From: Candidatus Sumerlaeaceae bacterium
GTDB taxonomy: Bacteria; Sumerlaeota; Sumerlaeia; Sumerlaeales; Sumerlaeaceae
NCBI GenBank assembly: GCA_049968255.1
Contig: JBMFRB010000002.1
Span: 160,001-224,000, forward strand
DNA: 64,000 nt
Reading direction: 5' to 3'
Shown here piece after piece: positions 1,062 to 9,775 of this stretch. The notes beneath the pieces are model-generated. The model was not told the origin of the DNA, ran no database searches, and worked only from the letters and a program-made list of their open reading frames with translations. Numbering within the stretch: position 1 is the stretch's first letter; every line of letters starts with the position of its first letter. The position numbers were made by a program, and so were the translations under genes.

Positions 1062-1664
1062 ATGCCGTGTAGTGTTCTCAATGAAAGTGTCCTAGTGTTA
1101 AATAGACACTGGGTTGCAGTCCACGTGACGAACGCACGTCGTGCCCTCGTCCTTCTCTACGCCGCACATGCCCGAGTGGTGACGGAGGACTACTCTACTC
1201 ACACCTTCGAAAGCTGGCGTGAGCTTTCGGCCGCCATGAACACGGTGAAAAAGATCATCACTCCAAGCTTTGAGATTGCCGTGCCAGAAGTTATTATGCT
1301 TACGGAGTTTAGCAAGTTTCCGCCACGCCACGTCAAGTTCTCGCGGCGTAACATTTATCTGCGGGACAATTTTACGTGCCAGTACTGTGGAGCTGTTCCC
1401 CCACGGGAAGAGCTGACAATCGACCACGTTATCCCGCGATCGCGTGGGGGGCGAACCGTGTGGGAGAACGTCGTTCTGGCGTGTGTCAAGTGCAATACGA
1501 TGAAGGGCAACCGTTTGCCAGAAGAAGCTGGACTTGTGTTGCGCACGAAGCCACGAAAACCTCACTGGTTGGCTTGCACAAGCTTCAATCTGCCATCGCA
1601 GCCCAGTTCTCTGTGGCAGCGTTTTCTCGATAATGCTTACTGGAATACACCGCTCCGGCCCTAA
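1062..1664 (+). CDS. HNH endonuclease (McrA-like / HNH_5 family)
   Basis: N-terminal VLVLN; FSRRNIYLRDNFTCQYCG...LTIDHVIPRSRGG...WENVVLACVKCNTMKGN gives CxxC-HNH-CxxC. Confidence 0.92.
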   Translation: MPCSVLNESVLVLNRHWVAVHVTNARRALVLLYAAHARVVTEDYSTHTFESWRELSAAMNTVKKIITPSFEIAVPEVIMLTEFSKFPPRHVKFSRRNIYLRDNFTCQYCGAVPPREELTIDHVIPRSRGGRTVWENVVLACVKCNTMKGNRLPEEAGLVLRTKPRKPHWLACTSFNLPSQPSSLWQRFLDNAYWNTPLRP

Positions 1665-1715: not shown

Positions 1716-2993
1716 TCACTCACTGAGTTCTACAATCATAAACTGGGTTTTGCCCACTTTGAGTTTGTAGGTGCCAGCAACCAGAGGCATCCGTGCCGAC
1801 GACAACACAGCAGCGTTATCCAGAAGATCGATTGGTTGACATGGCGGCTGATCAAATACCTTGACGCCGCCTTGCTGCACAAGGCGTTGGGCCTCACGTG
1901 CCGACGATGCTGCACCAGTAGCGGTCAGGAGCTTGATGAGATTGGGTGCCTCCGATAGGCGCAAACGGTAGCGGTCGGCACTCTCCTCTGGAAAAAGCCG
2001 GAGGCTAAAACGAGCCCGGAATGCTTCCGCTTCGCGCTCGGCTGCCTCAGGACTATGATAGAGCGAGACGATTGTCTTTGCCAGCAGTTCTTTTGCGTCG
2101 CGGGGGTGCAATTCCCCAGATTTTACCCGTTCGCGAATGGCTTGTGTTTGCGCCGAAGAGAATCCCGCAGCTAATTGAAAATAATCCCACATGAGCTCAT
2201 CCGGAATGCTCATGGTTTTCCCAAACATGTCGCGCGGAGGCTCTGTGATTCCGATGTAGTTGCCTAGGCTTTTGCTCATTTTATTGACGCCGTCGAGCCC
2301 CACGAGCAGCGGCATGGTCATAACGCACTGAGCATCCATGCCAGCTTCACGCTGGAGAGTGCGTCCTACTAATAAATTAAATTTCTGATCTGTGCCACCC
2401 AGCTCAATGTCCGCGCGCACCGCAATTGAGTCGTACCCCTGCAGCAACGGATAGATGAATTCGTGGAGGTAAATGGGGACCTCGCGTTCGAAGCGGCGAT
2501 GGAAATCTTCGCGTTCGAGCATTTGCGAGACCGTAAATTTGCTCATGAGCTCGATCGTTGCGGAGACGTCCATTTTCTCAAGCCACGTGGAGTTGAAGAC
2601 GACTTCGGTTCGATCGCGGTCGAGAATTTTGAAAATCTGTTCTAAGTAGGTGCGTGCATTTTGGAGGACTTGCTCTTTGCTCAGGCGCGGACGTGTTGTG
2701 TTTTTGCCGCTTGGATCACCAATACGAGCCGTGTAATCGCCAATCAGAAAAACCACTTGATGACCAAGGTCCTGAAATTGCTTCAATTTTCGAATGGGCA
2801 CGCTGTGGCCGAGGTGGATGTCGGGGGCTGATGGGTCTGCACCGTATTTCACACGGAGAGGTCTGCTCTCGCGCTTCGAACGCAACAGCTTCTCAATAAA
2901 TTCCTCAGAGGGGAGAATCTCGACAGTGTTGGAAGCCAAAATCTCGTATTCTTCGCGAATTTCGTCGGGAATGACCAGCGTTGTCTCACTCAT
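1716..2993 (-). CDS. tyrS: Tyrosine--tRNA ligase
   Basis: GADPSAPDIHLGH (HIGH), YPLLQGYD, GGTDQKFN, KMSKS; S4-like C-terminus. Confidence 0.97.
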   Translation of the reverse strand: MSETTLVIPDEIREEYEILASNTVEILPSEEFIEKLLRSKRESRPLRVKYGADPSAPDIHLGHSVPIRKLKQFQDLGHQVVFLIGDYTARIGDPSGKNTTRPRLSKEQVLQNARTYLEQIFKILDRDRTEVVFNSTWLEKMDVSATIELMSKFTVSQMLEREDFHRRFEREVPIYLHEFIYPLLQGYDSIAVRADIELGGTDQKFNLLVGRTLQREAGMDAQCVMTMPLLVGLDGVNKMSKSLGNYIGITEPPRDMFGKTMSIPDELMWDYFQLAAGFSSAQTQAIRERVKSGELHPRDAKELLAKTIVSLYHSPEAAEREAEAFRARFSLRLFPEESADRYRLRLSEAPNLIKLLTATGAASSAREAQRLVQQGGVKVFDQPPCQPIDLLDNAAVLSSARMPLVAGTYKLKVGKTQFMIVELSE

Positions 2994-3161
2994 AGCGATT
3001 TGCCCTTATGGACGTTAGACTCTGAAATCAATAGCAGAGTTCGCTTTTTGTTTGGATGTAACCCCCCCGACGGCAAAAGGCATGCCCCAGGGCATTCGCT
3101 TGCGGCAAACGGGGTGCCTGTGGGTGGCCCATAAGTGCATTCTGAATGCTAGCGAGCCAAC

Positions 3162-4748
3162 CTAAGCTTTCCCTAAGATGGCGATTAGTTGTTCGGGCGT
3201 GTGAGCGTCTACAAAGTCGCGGAACGATTCACCATTTTGGGCCCATGCTTCGAACGCTTTACACAGACGAACCAGGGTTGGAGCCAAGGCCGACGCTGGC
3301 ACCTTGCGCATAATAGTCTCAGCAAATCGGGGCTGCGCGCCGGTTCCACCGCCGAGTTGGATGTCGTAAACCTCCACGGGTTGACCTTCAACTTTGGTCA
3401 GGCCGCCGCGCAACCCAATGTCGGCGATGGCAGTCTGGCCGCAGTTATTGGGGCAGCCACTTATGTGGATCCTCAACTTCCGGTGAAAGTTTGGCAAGGC
3501 TTCCTCAAGCTTACGCGAGAGTTCGATGGATAAAGCTTTAGTCTCAGTGATGGCGAGGTTGCAGAACTCGGTTCCGGTGCAGGCTACCATATAGCGCCGG
3601 AAGCTACTTGGTCGAGGAGAAAATCCCAGCGCCTCGAGGTCATGAACAACATGGGGGATGTTGTCTTTGGGAATATGCGTAATAATGAAATTTTGCTTAT
3701 TTGTGTTGCGAAGAGTGGCGTGAGTCGAGTACTGGTCCACAATGTCCGCCAGGCGCAGGAGTCTATCAGCTGAAGTCCGGCCCGACGTGACACCCACTCC
3801 AACGTAGTAGAGGCCGTCCTGTTTTTGCGGATGAATGCCGAGATGATCGTCTTCTGTGTCGGCAGGTGGGGGCGGCGCGGTGTAACGTTCGAGCTGGTAG
3901 CCAAGCTTATTTTCCAAAAGGCGCAAAAAACCTTCCGCACCGATGCCTATTTTCGGATCGTGGATTAGGAACTTGAGTCGAGCTTTTCCACGATCTTCGC
4001 GCAGCACGTCGCTATCACGGAAAATCGTAGTGATTTCGCGCACGACGTCAAAAACTTGATCGTAAGAGAGAAACACATTGAGATCAGCGGCAAAATAGGG
4101 GCGTGTTGACAGCCCGCCACCCACCATGAGGCCAAAACCGAACTCGTAGCGATTGCCAACTTTCCGCTCGATGCCATATAATCCTACGTCGTTAATCTGC
4201 GGTTGGGCGCATCTCTGTCGGCACCCTGCGATCGAAATTTTGTACTTACGGGGGAGATTGGAAAACTCTTTGTTGCCCGTGAGGTAGGTGCTGATGCGCT
4301 TCACCAAGGGGCTTGCGTCGCAGATCTCCGTGCCGTCGATCCCTGCAATAGGGCAGCCGACAACGTTACGGGTCACGTCGCCGCATGCACCAACGGTGTG
4401 CAGTCCCACTCGTTGCAGCCGGTGGAAGATCTCGGGCACATTCTCGATCCGGATCCAGTGAAGTTGGTAGTTTTGGCGTGTCGTGATATCAACTAACCCT
4501 CTTCCGAACTCCTGGGCGATGGCGGCTACCTCGCGGACCTGATTTGCCAACAGATCGCCGTTGGGAATCTTGACCCGAAGCATGAAATAACCATTTTTGG
4601 GTTTTTGCTGATACAATCCATACCACCGGAAGAGATCGACGTACTCGCGATCCATTTTCTCGAACCCAGCCGCGGCGGCTCGAATGATATCTTCCAAAAC
4701 GTCCAAGCCGTCCTTCTGTCTTTTTAGGTGTTCAACAGTCGTAGCCAT
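3162..4748 (-). CDS. Siroheme nitrite/sulfite reductase (ferredoxin-dependent NirA/Sir/CysI type)
   Basis: FMLRVKIPNG, DITTRQNYQLH, LPRKYKISI; siroheme-[4Fe-4S] ligand motifs ACTGTEFCNLA and SGCPNNCGQ. Confidence 0.93.
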   Translation of the reverse strand: MATTVEHLKRQKDGLDVLEDIIRAAAAGFEKMDREYVDLFRWYGLYQQKPKNGYFMLRVKIPNGDLLANQVREVAAIAQEFGRGLVDITTRQNYQLHWIRIENVPEIFHRLQRVGLHTVGACGDVTRNVVGCPIAGIDGTEICDASPLVKRISTYLTGNKEFSNLPRKYKISIAGCRQRCAQPQINDVGLYGIERKVGNRYEFGFGLMVGGGLSTRPYFAADLNVFLSYDQVFDVVREITTIFRDSDVLREDRGKARLKFLIHDPKIGIGAEGFLRLLENKLGYQLERYTAPPPPADTEDDHLGIHPQKQDGLYYVGVGVTSGRTSADRLLRLADIVDQYSTHATLRNTNKQNFIITHIPKDNIPHVVHDLEALGFSPRPSSFRRYMVACTGTEFCNLAITETKALSIELSRKLEEALPNFHRKLRIHISGCPNNCGQTAIADIGLRGGLTKVEGQPVEVYDIQLGGGTGAQPRFAETIMRKVPASALAPTLVRLCKAFEAWAQNGESFRDFVDAHTPEQLIAILGKA

Positions 4749-4942
4749 TGTGAATTTCCCTATATATCCAGTAGATTATTAGTTTATTATTCCAGACAAA
4801 TCGTCTTATTCGTTCACACTGGAGGTGCTTAAGCAAAACCGCCAACGTACGCGGCTTCATGTCGCGCCACGATTTAGTTGTCTGCTCGGGCTCGGAAAAA
4901 GTGCAGCGGCCCCGTCGCGAGGTTTTTCGTAGGGGGACCTTT

Positions 4943-6661
4943 TCACTTCACATATTCGCTAATCACGCTGCGGACAATTGGGTTGCGTGCCAGGGCCTCG
5001 GAAGCCTCCGAATACGAGAAACGTCCCGTAGCCAACAGAAGGGCTTTGGGTACAACCTTTTCCACATTTTTGGCGATCTCAATACACAAGCTAATGGAAG
5101 CTTCCCGCTGCGCCTCTGTTAGCTCATCTGTTTGGAAAATGGACTTCAGCAGAGCTTCCAAAGCTTCCTCCGCGGACACCCCCATAAGGTCCGTGATGAT
5201 CGAAATTGTCCGATGAAAAAGTTTATTATTGGAAATACGCAGGTCAACCATGCGGTTTCCAAAAACTTTCCCCGCCAAAATATGCCCACCAGTCGTCGTT
5301 GCGTTCAGCACAAGCTTAATGGCCATTTCGAGAGGAGCGACGCCGAGGTGTGGATGAACGGAAATTGGTAAGTTTACCACGATGTCCGCTTCGGGTGGCT
5401 CCCCGCTCCAGTGAAGGCCAGCCATATGTGCACCACTGCGGCGAATGTCTTCAAGTAGATTGTGACTATCGGCGGGCTTACCTATGAAAATGCAAAGATC
5501 ATCCTCTTTGAGCTTCGGGAGTTTGTTCCGTCGAAAATCATCAAGCGAAACCTGGTAATGAGCGGCTCGCGAAGACAAATCGACCGACCCATCGGGGAAG
5601 AGGCATCTCCAACCACTTTCAACGAAGCCGCGCACGTCTTCGAAATCTGCTCCGAAGGTCGGGGGGCACTCGGATGCATCAATTAGGCCTAAAATTCCTC
5701 CATCTACCGCTGCGTACTCACCCGCATTGAGCCGCATCCGTCCTGCATTCCCGAGGTAGTAGATGTGGCATTTCTTGCGGAGTGCGTTTCCGCCCCACGC
5801 GATGAGCTGTGCGATTTTGTCAGCTTCTAAATAGGTTGTACGATATGCAGTTTCGTATTCCCGCAGGCACTGCAACACATACGCATCGAGGTCCTCTTCG
5901 TGCAGACCGCCTTTTAGCAGCTGGAATGCGCTAGAGAAAACAATTTCCAACACAATCTTTGTCGCAGTGCCGCTTTTCATGCGGGTGGAGCCCGTGATGG
6001 GCTCGGGGCCAACGATGGGATTCAGAATGGTGCCGTTTGGTGCCCCTGCCACCTTTTCTGCCGTAGCCTTGAACGAAAATGGCCAACCTTCCACCGGTGT
6101 TGAGCGGGCTAAGTCGACTGGATTGAAACCAACGAGTACGGCATGCCAGTTTCGGGTTTCGAGCGCGAGTTCAAGTTGACCCGCAATGTAGGGTGCGCTG
6201 AAACCGCACGTGATCCCAAAATAAAGCACGCGTGGCGCACCCTGCGCTAATTGTCTCAGTTCTTGTTGCGCTTTGTAAGGATCGTCTTCAGCTCCCTCTT
6301 GCGCTTGAATAAGTGCGGGTGGGCCGCCAGCAATCAGGAAGCGGAAAGGTTCGTAGCCAAGCGCACGCCATGCCGTGTTGAACTCGCGTGCAAGAAACAT
6401 CGCAAGGCGCCCACTCGTCCCGGCCCCACTCAAGACAATCACATTTTTCTGATCAGAGCAAAAGTCACGCACGAGCTTTGCGCTGCGCGCCATAGCGTCG
6501 ATGCAAGGCCGATCGTAGAAGCCGGCATAAGTACTGTAGCCTGCAAAAATCTGGGCGTCGGTTTGCCTAAGCAGCCGCACAATCCCGACGGGCGGAGCTA
6601 AATCAATATCAGTCGTCAATGGATTTGGTGTCTCTGTGAGCGACCGCAGTTTGCGCTCCAT
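4943..6661 (-). CDS. Glucokinase regulatory protein (GKRP)-like double-SIS protein, MurQ etherase superfamily
   Basis: About 572 aa from the ATG at 6661. Motifs LTETPNPLT, SGAGTSGRL, LIAGG, EGAED, VGPEPITGSTRMKSGTATK, DASECPPTFG, GKVFGNRMVDLRISNNKL. Confidence 0.85.
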   Translation of the reverse strand: MERKLRSLTETPNPLTTDIDLAPPVGIVRLLRQTDAQIFAGYSTYAGFYDRPCIDAMARSAKLVRDFCSDQKNVIVLSGAGTSGRLAMFLAREFNTAWRALGYEPFRFLIAGGPPALIQAQEGAEDDPYKAQQELRQLAQGAPRVLYFGITCGFSAPYIAGQLELALETRNWHAVLVGFNPVDLARSTPVEGWPFSFKATAEKVAGAPNGTILNPIVGPEPITGSTRMKSGTATKIVLEIVFSSAFQLLKGGLHEEDLDAYVLQCLREYETAYRTTYLEADKIAQLIAWGGNALRKKCHIYYLGNAGRMRLNAGEYAAVDGGILGLIDASECPPTFGADFEDVRGFVESGWRCLFPDGSVDLSSRAAHYQVSLDDFRRNKLPKLKEDDLCIFIGKPADSHNLLEDIRRSGAHMAGLHWSGEPPEADIVVNLPISVHPHLGVAPLEMAIKLVLNATTTGGHILAGKVFGNRMVDLRISNNKLFHRTISIITDLMGVSAEEALEALLKSIFQTDELTEAQREASISLCIEIAKNVEKVVPKALLLATGRFSYSEASEALARNPIVRSVISEYVK

Positions 6662-6771
6662 TTTACCCTTTCCCCTTCCCATTTTTTGGCAAGTCGTCGC
6701 TTGGAAGTGCGCCAGCAAACGTCTCTTTTCCCAAGCTGCGGGCTCCAACCGTGCGCGCTCAGAAACGTCTT

Positions 6772-7824
6772 TCAACGAAGAAAAACAGGGACAGATACAT
6801 CGCTCCAATACGTGCCATCTTCTCTTACGGGGGCGATAGCTAGTGCAAAGACGTTGGATTCATCTGGTGTCGTGCTCCAAAAGCGAGCGCCAGCCCGTGC
6901 TCCAGCGAAGCTAATGGTGCTGACAAAATTCCCATTCTTGTCGACGGCAATTTTTTGAGCCCAGACCGGCACTCCACCATCTGGCGGCATTAGGTACACG
7001 ACAATTTGCCGGCAACTGCGCGAGACCTTTCCCGCGAGAACATAGATGGCGTCGCACCTGAGTTTCACGGAAATGAGAGAGCTTTGCGTGACATGAATAG
7101 CATTCGTAGTAAACACCTGATGAGGGAAGGGTGAATCACCCGGAAAGCTGTAGGCACTCTCGAGAGCATTCTGAGAGAAGTACTCCTTTCCTTCCTCCGG
7201 CACACCGTCTGGGCAATCTACGAACCTCGCAGGAAGTGATTGTCCTACGGCATTCTGCACCTGGAAATGTAAATGCGGTTTAGTGGAGTAGCCAGTGTTG
7301 CCGCTTTTGGCGATCGGCTGCCCGCGACACACGATGTCGCCTTCCCGCACGAGTGCCGAGTGGGCCTTTAGATGCAAATACTGGCTAAAAATGCCATGGC
7401 CGTGATCAATGATGATTCGATTAGCTCGGGTGCGCCCTTTTGGATCAAACGTCGGAGCAGTGTAACTTTGCTGAACGCACACCACTCGACCGCCCGCTGC
7501 GGCACAAACGGTTTCTCCCTCCGGTAAGTCAAAATCCCAAGCGTAGTGATTGAAGCCATAATGGCTGAAGCGCCCACCAAAACCCTGAATCACACGAAAT
7601 GCTTTTCCTTTCTCGTACGGTAGGCAAAACATGATCCCACTAGTAGCGACGTCGCACAGGTCAGTTGAAGCCACGTCGGCATCTTGCGCTCCTGCCCAAG
7701 GCGCGTAGCTCCACACGACCACAAGAAGCCAGGTCTGGATCACGCGCACGCAAGGACGTTTGTTACGCCAAAATTTGCAGAGAAAAGCCTTTGTCATTAT
7801 CTGTCCTAGGATACCAAAGCCCAC
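6772..7824 (-). CDS. M23 family metallopeptidase, probably exported (start uncertain)
   Basis: HYAWDFD (HxxxD), YLHL, GNTGYSTKPHLHFQV (HxH); hydrophobic signal-like segment. Confidence 0.88.
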   Translation of the reverse strand: MGFGILGQIMTKAFLCKFWRNKRPCVRVIQTWLLVVVWSYAPWAGAQDADVASTDLCDVATSGIMFCLPYEKGKAFRVIQGFGGRFSHYGFNHYAWDFDLPEGETVCAAAGGRVVCVQQSYTAPTFDPKGRTRANRIIIDHGHGIFSQYLHLKAHSALVREGDIVCRGQPIAKSGNTGYSTKPHLHFQVQNAVGQSLPARFVDCPDGVPEEGKEYFSQNALESAYSFPGDSPFPHQVFTTNAIHVTQSSLISVKLRCDAIYVLAGKVSRSCRQIVVYLMPPDGGVPVWAQKIAVDKNGNFVSTISFAGARAGARFWSTTPDESNVFALAIAPVREDGTYWSDVSVPVFLR

Positions 7825-7996
7825 CCCTGATTCAACTCGATCCTTGCCGCAGAACCTGCCAGAGGATTGGCGATCCTCTTTGTCGTTTGGTGCTGGGCTC
7901 CATCAGGCGCGAGCATCGCGTAGCCAAGCTTGCTTGAGCGCTGTCCTTGAAACTTGTTTGATTTCCCTGTTTTAGCAGGGGATTTTACGTGAGCAG

Positions 7997-9055
7997 ATGT
8001 TTACGCAAATTCTATCGCAACCCGAAGTTGTGGCCGTTGCTGTCAGTGCAAGTGTTTGCTACGTTGCTACCTGGATTGTCCGGGGAGCCATGTGGCGTTT
8101 GGGCGTTCTGGACATCCCCACTGGCGAGCGAAAGCGCCATCGCTACCCTGTGCCTTATGAAGGGGGCGTTGCCATGTATCTGGGGTTCATCTCCGGCCTT
8201 GTTTCGTACGCACTCATGGATTGCTCGGCGCTATTGTGGTACGACGTCGCTAAAGCCCTTGTCATTGGCGCCACAGCCAGCACTGCGATTGGGGTGATTG
8301 ACGATGTCCTGGATCTTCGCCCGTGGGCTAAGTTTATTGCCCAGCTCTTCATTGGAGTGCTTATGTATCATTTCGGCTTCCGGATCGAACGGATCAGCAA
8401 TCCCTTCGGCAACGAAGTCAGTGTCATGGGTGGAGTGAGTTTGCTTGGGACGGTGCTGTGGTACGCGCTTCTTATGAATGGGATAAATATGATAGATGGA
8501 GTTGATGGCTTAGCGGCTGGCATCGTGGCAATCTCAGGCGCGACGCTTGGTCTTATTGCGCTGGATCTTCAACAACCCGTGGCAGCAGTGGTTGCGTTCA
8601 TTTTGAGCGCCGTCTGCCTTGGGTTTCTTCCTCACAATTTTTATCCCGCGCGAATTTTCATGGGTGATGCTGGCAGCTTGTTGCTTGGCTTTCTTCTGGC
8701 TTCCCTCACTCTCATGTCGAGCAGTAAAACGCCAGCGGTCCTCACACTGGCGGTCCCAATTGTAGCCGTCTGCCTTCCGCTTTTTGAGACGCTCTTTGCT
8801 TTTGCTCGACGGGTGGCAAAGGGCCAGCATCCTTTCAAAGGAGATCGCAGCCACCTGCATCACCGGTTTTTGGATTTGGGATTTACCGAGCGCCGCACTG
8901 TCCTTATTCTCTACTATCTCACGGCCTACGTCGGCGTCATTGCCTACGTGTTGCAAAAACTCGATTCGCGTCTGACTCTGCTCATGGCCTTTTTCCTTGG
9001 GCTGGGTCTCTATCTGCTCGCGGAGAGCTTGGCGTTTCTGCGGCGCCGCAGTTAG
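7997..9055 (+). CDS. Undecaprenyl-phosphate GlcNAc-1-phosphate transferase (WecA/TagO, Glycos_transf_4 family)
   Basis: Polytopic membrane protein with GVIDD, NMIDGVDGLA, IFMGDAGS, DRSHLHHR. Confidence 0.92.
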   Translation: MFTQILSQPEVVAVAVSASVCYVATWIVRGAMWRLGVLDIPTGERKRHRYPVPYEGGVAMYLGFISGLVSYALMDCSALLWYDVAKALVIGATASTAIGVIDDVLDLRPWAKFIAQLFIGVLMYHFGFRIERISNPFGNEVSVMGGVSLLGTVLWYALLMNGINMIDGVDGLAAGIVAISGATLGLIALDLQQPVAAVVAFILSAVCLGFLPHNFYPARIFMGDAGSLLLGFLLASLTLMSSSKTPAVLTLAVPIVAVCLPLFETLFAFARRVAKGQHPFKGDRSHLHHRFLDLGFTERRTVLILYYLTAYVGVIAYVLQKLDSRLTLLMAFFLGLGLYLLAESLAFLRRRS

Positions 9056-9067
9056 CCGGTTGTTCGC

Positions 9068-9775
9068 TCAGCGTTTCTTGCGGCGCATGGTTTTCAGGCG
9101 CTCCCAAGCGTCCAGACGCCGTTGAATTGGCGCTGCGATTTTAGAATTTAACTCGTCAATATGCTCTTTGATCCTCGTACGGTCATCGAGCCGCTGAACC
9201 TGTATCGGCTGATGATAGGTGACGATGATCGGTCGGAACCAACGTGGCAAAAAATTGTGTCGTGGCCAAGCCTCGAATGCGCCGACTATCGAAACCGGCA
9301 CAATCGTCGCACCTGTTGCGAGTGCAAGCCGTGCTACACCGGGCTCAAACGGGCAAAGACGCCCCGCCGCACTCCGGCCACCTTCGGGAAAAATGAGCAC
9401 AACCTCATTGTTCTTTAGCACTTTCAGTGTTTCAACAATTGCGCTCTTATCTGGAGCCTCCTGCTTCACCGGAAACGCACCGTAGAGACTTATAAACCAA
9501 CCCAAGATCGGCACTCGGAACAATGGCTCCATGGCCATGAATCGCATGCGGTAAGGGATCCCGGCAGGAATCACGCATGCATCATAATAGGAAACGTGAT
9601 TTGGTGCAATGATCGCAGGACCATGCTGTGGCAAACTGTCCTGCCTACGGTAGCGGAGAAAGTGAAAGATGCGAAAATAAACAATAAAACAAATTCGCGT
9701 TATCTCCCAAAGAAGATTTGTCCGGAGAATATCGCCTTTCGGTCGGGCCAGCCCTGGCATGAGTTTCTTCATCAT
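9068..9775 (-). CDS. plsC: 1-acyl-sn-glycerol-3-phosphate acyltransferase
   Basis: NHVSYYD (HX4D), GAFPV, IFPEGGRS, IVPV; start placed at the ATG at 9775. Confidence 0.88.
   Translation of the reverse strand: MMKKLMPGLARPKGDILRTNLLWEITRICFIVYFRIFHFLRYRRQDSLPQHGPAIIAPNHVSYYDACVIPAGIPYRMRFMAMEPLFRVPILGWFISLYGAFPVKQEAPDKSAIVETLKVLKNNEVVLIFPEGGRSAAGRLCPFEPGVARLALATGATIVPVSIVGAFEAWPRHNFLPRWFRPIIVTYHQPIQVQRLDDRTRIKEHIDELNSKIAAPIQRRLDAWERLKTMRRKKR

Follow-up and report, generated by a model that had tools for sequence, protein, structure and literature searches.

A gene at positions 4943 to 6661 (minus strand) of the DNA analyzed here encodes a full-length bacterial homologue of the glucokinase regulatory protein (GKRP), in which two SIS domains are fused and followed by a C-terminal lid. 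The DNA is a 64,000-nucleotide stretch of contig JBMFRB010000002.1 (positions 160,001 to 224,000 of the contig), here referred to as the window, and it derives from the metagenome-assembled genome of an uncultured Candidatus Sumerlaeaceae bacterium (GCA_049968255.1). We consider it likely that the 572-amino-acid (aa) protein is a cytoplasmic etherase for the 6-phosphate of N-acetylmuramic acid (MurNAc-6-P), acting as a single chain, with one composite active site, in place of the homodimeric enzyme MurQ. In most Sumerlaeota and in some Phycisphaerae, fused genes of this kind appear to supply the step of peptidoglycan recycling for which MurQ is missing. The family, its architecture, and its etherase activity are already known from eukaryotes, and the bacterial proteins fall within existing Pfam models. 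The fused “eukaryotic” architecture is also common in one bacterial phylum, and the bacterial forms reopen the question of where the fusion took place.

Architecture and proposed active site of the two-SIS protein

The coding sequence (protein P0001, stop codon included) is a stop-free frame on the minus strand, and its assignment draws on Pfam domains, solved GKRP structures, and a predicted model. Each of the three GKRP domains scored well above the cut-off of its Pfam model. An N-terminal GKRP-type SIS domain (GKRP_SIS_N, PF22645) forms the core of SIS domain 1 at residues 69 to 166 (window positions 6164 to 6457; 117.4 bits against a cut-off of 27, E value of 3.3e-34). It is followed by a second, degenerate SIS domain (GKRP_SIS_2, PF22198) at residues 279 to 393 (5483 to 5827; 61.8 bits against 27, 9.7e-17) and by a helical lid (GKRP-like_C, PF20741) at residues 469 to 567 (4961 to 5257; 108.6 bits against 27.7, 2.6e-31), all on the minus strand. 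Using phmmer, we found that the best sequence matches among solved structures were the Xenopus, human, and rat GKRPs (E values of 8e-96 to 4e-90), and residues 8 to 565 aligned with residues 41 to 610 of human GKRP in a single alignment (8.7e-95). A GKRP profile built from eukaryotic sequences gave the protein 575 bits, a score as high as that of many eukaryotic members. MurQ structures matched in two stretches and at only 6e-23 to 4e-17, and the NCBIfam MurQ models matched in three to four pieces, with NF009222 reaching 160 bits against a cut-off of 255. Where MurQ is a single SIS domain of ∼300 aa that forms a homodimer, this protein places two SIS domains in one chain of 572 aa.

The predicted fold points the same way. 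We modeled the protein with AlphaFold2 from an alignment of 20 bacterial relatives; the mean pLDDT was 91.4 and the pTM was 0.93, with residues 309 to 315 as the only disordered stretch. Foldseek superposed the model on Xenopus and human GKRP over 588 to 595 alignment columns (TMq, 0.89 to 0.90; root mean square deviation [rmsd], 2.6 to 2.8 Å); MurQ covered just half of it (TMq, 0.35 to 0.39), and weaker fold matches included isomerases and GlmS. A prior interpretation of this DNA, made by a model from the letters alone (the sequence-only reading), had proposed a full-length bacterial GKRP homologue with two fused SIS domains. Profile searches, structure comparison, and the phylogeny described below all bear this out, as does the sequence itself, and every peptide segment that it had quoted as GKRP-specific is present in the translation.

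To locate the active site, we judged residue conservation on 45 aligned full-length rows (20 bacterial and 25 eukaryotic) and aligned the halves with Escherichia coli MurQ (b2428, from the annotated K-12 record), in which E83 lies in the DASECPPT motif and E114 in the EGAED motif. SIS1 holds a GAGTSGR loop at residues 79 to 85 (6407 to 6427), which, from GKRP and MurQ structures, we take to be the phosphate-binding loop. Its residues G79, G81, T82, S83, G84, and R85 are kept in every row (20/20 bacterial and 25/25 eukaryotic), and at position 80 every bacterial row (20/20) has A, where eukaryotes have C, S, or A. SIS1 also holds the EGAED motif at residues 122 to 126 (6284 to 6298), with E125 equivalent to E114 of MurQ; E122, E125, and D126 are invariant in the 20 bacterial and 25 eukaryotic rows, and the whole motif is intact in 19/20 bacterial rows. 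The DASECPPT motif (residues 328 to 335, 5657 to 5680), in contrast, lies in SIS2 and is intact in 20/20 bacterial rows, and its glutamate E331, equivalent to E83 of MurQ, is present in all bacterial (20/20) and eukaryotic (25/25) rows. Two lid residues, K480 and R484 (5210 to 5224), are invariant in all 45 rows. These motifs are likewise all on the minus strand.

The two halves have lost complementary motifs. In the aligned halves, SIS1 lacks DASECPPT, and SIS2 lacks both the TSGR loop and EGAED; of the two sites that a MurQ-like dimer has, only one can therefore remain. The exact position of the lost SIS2 phosphate loop (a degenerate P-loop) is occupied by a variable insert of ∼13 residues (residues ∼305 to 320, 5702 to 5749, minus strand), recognized by low pLDDT at residues 309 to 315 and by the spacing among relatives. 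The spacing here is 23 residues; among the 120 relatives listed it is 10 in 62, 20 to 24 in 31, and 37 to 53 in 19, and the insert is specific to the clade of the window protein. The sequence-only reading had described both catalytic glutamate motifs as intact but split, EGAED in SIS1 and DASECPPT in SIS2, to give one composite site, and the alignment with E. coli MurQ agrees. We propose that SIS1 would contribute the GAGTSGR loop and E125, SIS2 would contribute E331, and the lid would contribute K480 and R484, so that these parts would build a single active site where SIS1 and SIS2 meet. The other site of the MurQ dimer, its mirror image, would have lost all three motifs, and the variable insert would lie there.

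Recycling genes, MurQ exclusivity, and the predicted etherase role

The genome that contains the window (3.12 Mb, 95.75% complete) provides the context in which MurQ works, namely, a kinase that produces MurNAc-6-P together with NagA. It encodes AnmK (303.8 bits), NagA (240.5 bits), a BadF/BadG-type kinase (144.8 bits), two GH3 genes (278 and 261 bits), and a PF01182 protein (89 bits). The product of AnmK, MurNAc-6-P, requires an etherase. A search of this genome with the MurQ equivalog model TIGR00274 matched only the two-SIS gene and two weak SIS proteins, and a canonical murQ, for which the sequence-only reading had suggested looking, was absent. In the route that we envisage, AnmK, and possibly also the BadF-type kinase, would generate MurNAc-6-P from products of cell wall turnover, and the two-SIS enzyme would then strip D-lactate from it to yield GlcNAc-6-P, which would pass to NagA.

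We surveyed 75 species genomes of the same phylum, counting matches with E values of ≤1e-150 as full-length copies. The full-length fused form is the majority form: 48/75 genomes, spread over 10 of the 18 family groups, had it and no other match. Canonical MurQ above the TIGR00274 cut-off was found in 13 genomes and a partial MurQ in one more, none of the 14 with the fused form, so that the two forms occurred together in 0/75 genomes. Neither form was found in the remaining 13, one of which has a broken fused gene. AnmK was detected in 33 genomes, 30 with the fused form, 2 with MurQ, and 1 (89% complete) with neither. Canonical MurQ was also absent from the genomes that hold two related loci, L012 (Sumerlaeota) and L013 (Phycisphaerae). 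The broken gene belongs to genome G008 of family group f6 (contig C921, 7918 to 9698), where three pieces of the fused gene are spread over two open frames, either because the gene is broken or because of an error in the assembly.

The evidence in favor of the etherase comprises the family and fold, the retained residues, the absence of murQ from a genome that has AnmK and NagA, the mutual exclusivity with MurQ, and the precedent of eukaryotic GKRPs. For the last of these, the preprint of Santiago et al. (2026, 10.64898/2026.05.08.723886) reports that lancelet GKRP is an etherase whose kcat/Km reaches about half that of E. coli MurQ, cites the Naegleria gruberi GKRP as an etherase, and confines glucokinase inhibition to jawed vertebrates.

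Several observations weigh against the etherase assignment. The protein scored 157.2 bits with TIGR00274, for which the cut-off is 302, and with the looser model NF003915 it exceeded the cut-off of 168 bits by a small margin (172 bits, the sum of four stretches). Of the 48 genomes that carry the fused form, 18 lack AnmK, and in the genome of the window we did not find an SLT-type lytic transglycosylase (PF01464, the one such family searched). The gene neighborhood lends little support, given that the adjacency of a cell wall peptidase gene (described below) is family specific. The assignment draws on the literature for E83 and E114 as the catalytic residues of MurQ and for the ligand contacts of GKRP. 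Finally, the etherase role is a prediction for every bacterial member, and the substrate, catalysis, and monomeric state given here are inferred.

Some of these observations would fit a MurQ-type enzyme that acts on another phosphosugar, such as a 3-O-substituted sugar phosphate or an amino-sugar phosphate from chitin or glycan breakdown. SIS enzymes use many sugar phosphates, the score falls under the MurQ equivalog cut-off, and more than a third (18/48) of the fused-form genomes of the phylum lack AnmK. We nonetheless regard this alternative as unlikely: the residues common to MurQ and to the etherase-active eukaryotic GKRPs are all kept, co-occurrence of the fused form with MurQ was seen in none of the 75 genomes, and AnmK is accompanied by one or the other of these two forms in 32 of the 33 genomes that encode it.

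The sequence-only reading had left the choice between an etherase and a sugar-phosphate sensor open. The pathway genes and the exclusivity with MurQ favor the former. A noncatalytic sensor that regulates a sugar kinase or another partner, as vertebrate GKRP does, would be in keeping with the nearest solved structures, which are glucokinase regulators, and with the description, in Santiago et al. (2026), of the GKRP ligand site as the old etherase site, able to bind several sugar phosphates. Yet a search with PF00349 returned no hexokinase-family gene from the 95.75% complete genome, which makes a role as glucokinase regulator unlikely. Moreover, both catalytic glutamate motifs have the canonical MurQ form, the strict complementarity with MurQ implies that the two proteins do the same job, and the same study describes nonvertebrate GKRPs as enzymes and glucokinase inhibition as restricted to jawed vertebrates. 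Taken together, these observations make the sensor very improbable, and the single-chain etherase remains our preferred explanation.

Distribution and origin of the fusion

The fused family extends beyond the Sumerlaeota. A word-indexed protein search returned 5,831 proteins with E values of ≤0.001 among 8,000 scored candidates. All of the 120 matches listed had the three GKRP domains; those named were from Sumerlaeota or Sumerlaeaceae, Phycisphaerae, and unclassified bacteria, and their database labels were “hypothetical protein” or “MurNAc-6-P etherase.” An exhaustive search of representatives clustered at 50% identity yielded 417 clusters with E values of ≤1e-30. Some of these representatives are long (P0240, 1,330 aa; P0204, 842 aa; P0225, 830 aa; P0220, 824 aa), which suggests that family members well over 600 aa are fusions to other domains. 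The fused form is not general in Planctomycetota: in an even sample of 201 genomes, the full-length form was found in one, the seed genome itself, and the other 118 genomes with a match had far weaker and mostly MurQ-sized proteins. Clusters in a protein atlas labeled Aminicenantota, Bdellovibrionota, Pseudomonadota, and Verrucomicrobiota are unverified leads only. The Phycisphaerae genome with locus L013 (G075) carries, in addition, a second and far more divergent MurQ/GKRP-like gene with a 576-aa frame (contig C522, 643 to 2190).

For phylogenetic analysis, named eukaryotic members were gathered by profile search and cluster look-ups, and named bacterial members came from metagenome-assembled genomes of Sumerlaeota, Phycisphaerae, and Planctomycetota. 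The eukaryotic rows include lamprey, teleosts, lancelet, echinoderms, molluscs, a brachiopod, a sponge, and choanoflagellates, as well as Thecamonas, dictyostelids, Balamuthia, Acrasis, Stygiella, and Anaeramoeba. A related-locus search in species genomes kept 80 loci, 2 of them with the fused form and the rest mostly ordinary MurQ, which served as outgroups. We then cut 31 of the 45 full-length rows into N and C parts and placed them in an IQ-TREE phylogeny to which 16 MurQ proteins of the ordinary kind were added. This selection omitted 14 rows, namely, the two longest branches (P0200 and P0217) and near duplicates or extra representatives (Seriola, Dictyostelium discoideum, two Phycisphaerae, L013, two Sumerlaeota, a protein from a 611-kb contig, Apostichopus, Lottia, Owenia, and one EukProt row).

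The 31 N halves formed one clade and the 31 C halves another, each with bacteria and eukaryotes together and an SH-aLRT support of 100. The stems that separate the two clades from MurQ measure 2.28 and 2.9 changes per column. Fourteen of the 16 MurQ rows fell outside both clades, and the other two (Ozemobacteraceae and Elusimicrobia) joined just outside the N-half clade with a support of 89. Because the N and C halves fall in two clades that each span both domains of life, the fusion is shared and is not a recent local duplication. The phylogeny thus indicates that both halves of the window protein descend from the same duplication-fusion as eukaryotic GKRP, rather than from an independent duplication of MurQ. 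A grouping of the halves with ordinary MurQ, or a similarity to the vertebrate regulator (GCKR) over only part of its length, would have counted against the GKRP assignment of the sequence-only reading; the halves lie outside ordinary MurQ, so that assignment stands, and the similarity to GCKR runs end to end.

The trees differ on where the fusion arose. In an unrooted tree of the 45 full-length rows, 19 of the 20 bacterial proteins formed one clan (support, 99). The root of the C-half tree falls inside bacteria, and that of the N-half tree falls, with weak support, among eukaryotes. In a matrix of the joined halves, 14 bacterial rows formed one clade (88) among eukaryotic lineages, and enforcing eukaryotic monophyly improved the likelihood by 8.9 (p-AU, 0.777). 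These results are compatible with reciprocal monophyly as well as with a fusion that arose in either bacteria or eukaryotes. The sequence-only reading had suggested that the gene may lie near the origin of eukaryotic GKRP or may have been transferred horizontally; on these trees, that point is weaker than it had implied.

The remaining bacterial protein, P0067, from a 73-kb contig of a “Candidatus Sumerlaeia” metagenome-assembled genome, grouped weakly with Amoebozoa (81) in the unrooted tree. It lay outside the main bacterial clan in three trees, either beside Amoebozoa or at the base of the eukaryotes, and it could mark a lineage near an interdomain transfer or reflect a binning problem.

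We offer, as a tentative proposal that is somewhat more likely to be wrong than right, that the unequal duplication-fusion of MurQ arose in bacteria, in or near Sumerlaeota-type lineages, and that eukaryotes gained the two-SIS etherase by transfer. Bearing on this proposal are the root of the C-half tree within bacteria, the reciprocal monophyly that was not rejected, and the MurQ consensus, which is best kept in bacteria. If it is true, the human regulator of glucokinase goes back to a fused enzyme of bacteria rather than to a fusion in an early eukaryote, and the fused form has displaced MurQ in Sumerlaeota-type lineages. Veiga-da-Cunha et al. (2009) reportedly mention two-repeat forms for “primitive eukaryotes” only. 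In a literature search that covered neither supplements nor that founding paper, no paper had a title or abstract opening on bacterial fused GKRP forms. Published work on the origin of the GKRP regulator, as far as the search covered it, treats the fusion as a eukaryotic event that started from bacterial murQ, and its ancestral reconstructions draw on eukaryotic sequences only. The bacterial proteins are a large, slowly evolving sister group and a natural outgroup for such reconstructions.

Gene context and comparison with known systems

We place the start of the gene at the ATG at 6661 to 6659, just downstream of a purine-rich, Shine-Dalgarno-like run (6680 to 6666, minus strand, 4 nucleotides upstream of the ATG; its function is presumed from the sequence). 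An alternative TTG at 6808 would lengthen the frame, but it runs into the upstream gene. This overlap, the Shine-Dalgarno-like run, and homologues of 569 to 574 aa that match the 572-aa form over 100% of its length led us to prefer the ATG. The upstream gene, on the same strand and possibly cotranscribed, encodes a Peptidase_M23 protein (6772 to 7824, minus strand; Pfam, 5.6e-22). A gap of 110 nucleotides separates the two genes, and a promoter and terminator scan identified no terminator-like site in it; counts in that scan were no higher than those in shuffled controls. No RNA run that holds the stretch from 4800 to 7900 was listed among public runs; the sole public run with part of it (0.30 of sampled words) is DNA and is labeled a hot springs metagenome, and it may represent the very sample behind the assembly of the window.

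The sequence-only reading had taken the adjacency of the M23 gene as consistent with amino-sugar or cell wall recycling. The adjacency is real, but it is kept only in the family of the window: the order of M23 gene, fused gene, and sulfite reductase gene was found in 2 of 13 other loci, both from that family. Given that neighbors differ elsewhere, we rejected a conserved operon as functional evidence. In L013, the neighbor of the fused gene (neighbor at 1805 to 3940, minus strand) is an Amidase_3 plus beta-lactamase-like protein, and in L012 the neighbors are a PF00144 beta-lactamase-family protein (8364 to 9635, minus strand) and a Wzy_C protein. These varied neighbors of cell wall type are suggestive of a cell wall link.

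Context also bears on whether the gene could be eukaryotic contamination of the metagenome-assembled genome or a very recent foreign insertion, as might be suspected for a family best known in eukaryotes and for a protein that scores 575 bits with a eukaryote-built profile. The G+C content is even along the 64-kb window (0.51 to 0.56), and bacterial genes flank it (TyrRS, sulfite/nitrite reductase, M23, glycosyltransferase family 4, and alanine racemase). Furthermore, two other genomes of the family show synteny of the fused gene with its M23 neighbor and the reductase gene, and the fused gene recurs in 48/75 genomes of the phylum. Contamination or recent insertion is thus an explanation to which we give almost no weight, and the gene is best read as a resident bacterial one. 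Elsewhere in the window, between a helicase C-terminal fragment and tyrS, a 200-aa open reading frame (1062 to 1664, plus strand) has an HNH-like Cys/His pattern, judged from its translation alone.

Among known systems, the GKRP-type etherases of N. gruberi and lancelet resemble the window protein in their three-domain architecture, length class, and catalytic and ligand residues, and their halves group with those of the window protein in the N and C clades. They are reported to have MurNAc-6-P etherase activity and to leave glucokinase uninhibited. The bacterial proteins differ in that their substrate would come from recycling of the host's own cell wall via AnmK rather than from digested prey, in that they hold the exact MurQ consensus (EGAED and DASECPPT) more strictly, and in the extra variable loop in SIS2 of the window clade.

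Vertebrate GCKR (PDB 4BB9, 4LY9, 4LC9, and 3W0L) is homologous to the window protein from end to end (∼33 to 34% identity; TM score, 0.84 to 0.90; rmsd, 2.6 to 3.9 Å) and has the same ligand-site residues. Vertebrate GKRP, however, binds and inhibits a hexokinase-family glucokinase under modulation by F6P, F1P, or S6P, and etherase activity has been lost in mammals; our search of the genome of the window found no hexokinase-family gene. In human GKRP, parts of both motifs are changed in the phmmer alignment, whereas both are intact in the window protein.

MurQ (E. coli b2428; PDB 4S12, 4LZJ, and 1NRI) shares with the window protein the catalytic motifs, the predicted reaction, and the partners AnmK and NagA, and within the phylum the two forms are mutually exclusive. 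The position of the relative in L012 beside a PF00144 beta-lactamase-family gene resembles that of murQ with yfeW in the murQ-murP-yfeW arrangement of E. coli. As described in 10.64898/2026.05.08.723886, MurQ has ∼300 aa and one SIS domain and forms a homodimer with two sites. The window protein, at 572 aa and under the TIGR00274 cut-off, is instead a fused, unequal duplicate with one site, and the bacterial group to which it belongs allows a test of whether a one-chain, single-site fusion of MurQ keeps the kinetics of the etherase.

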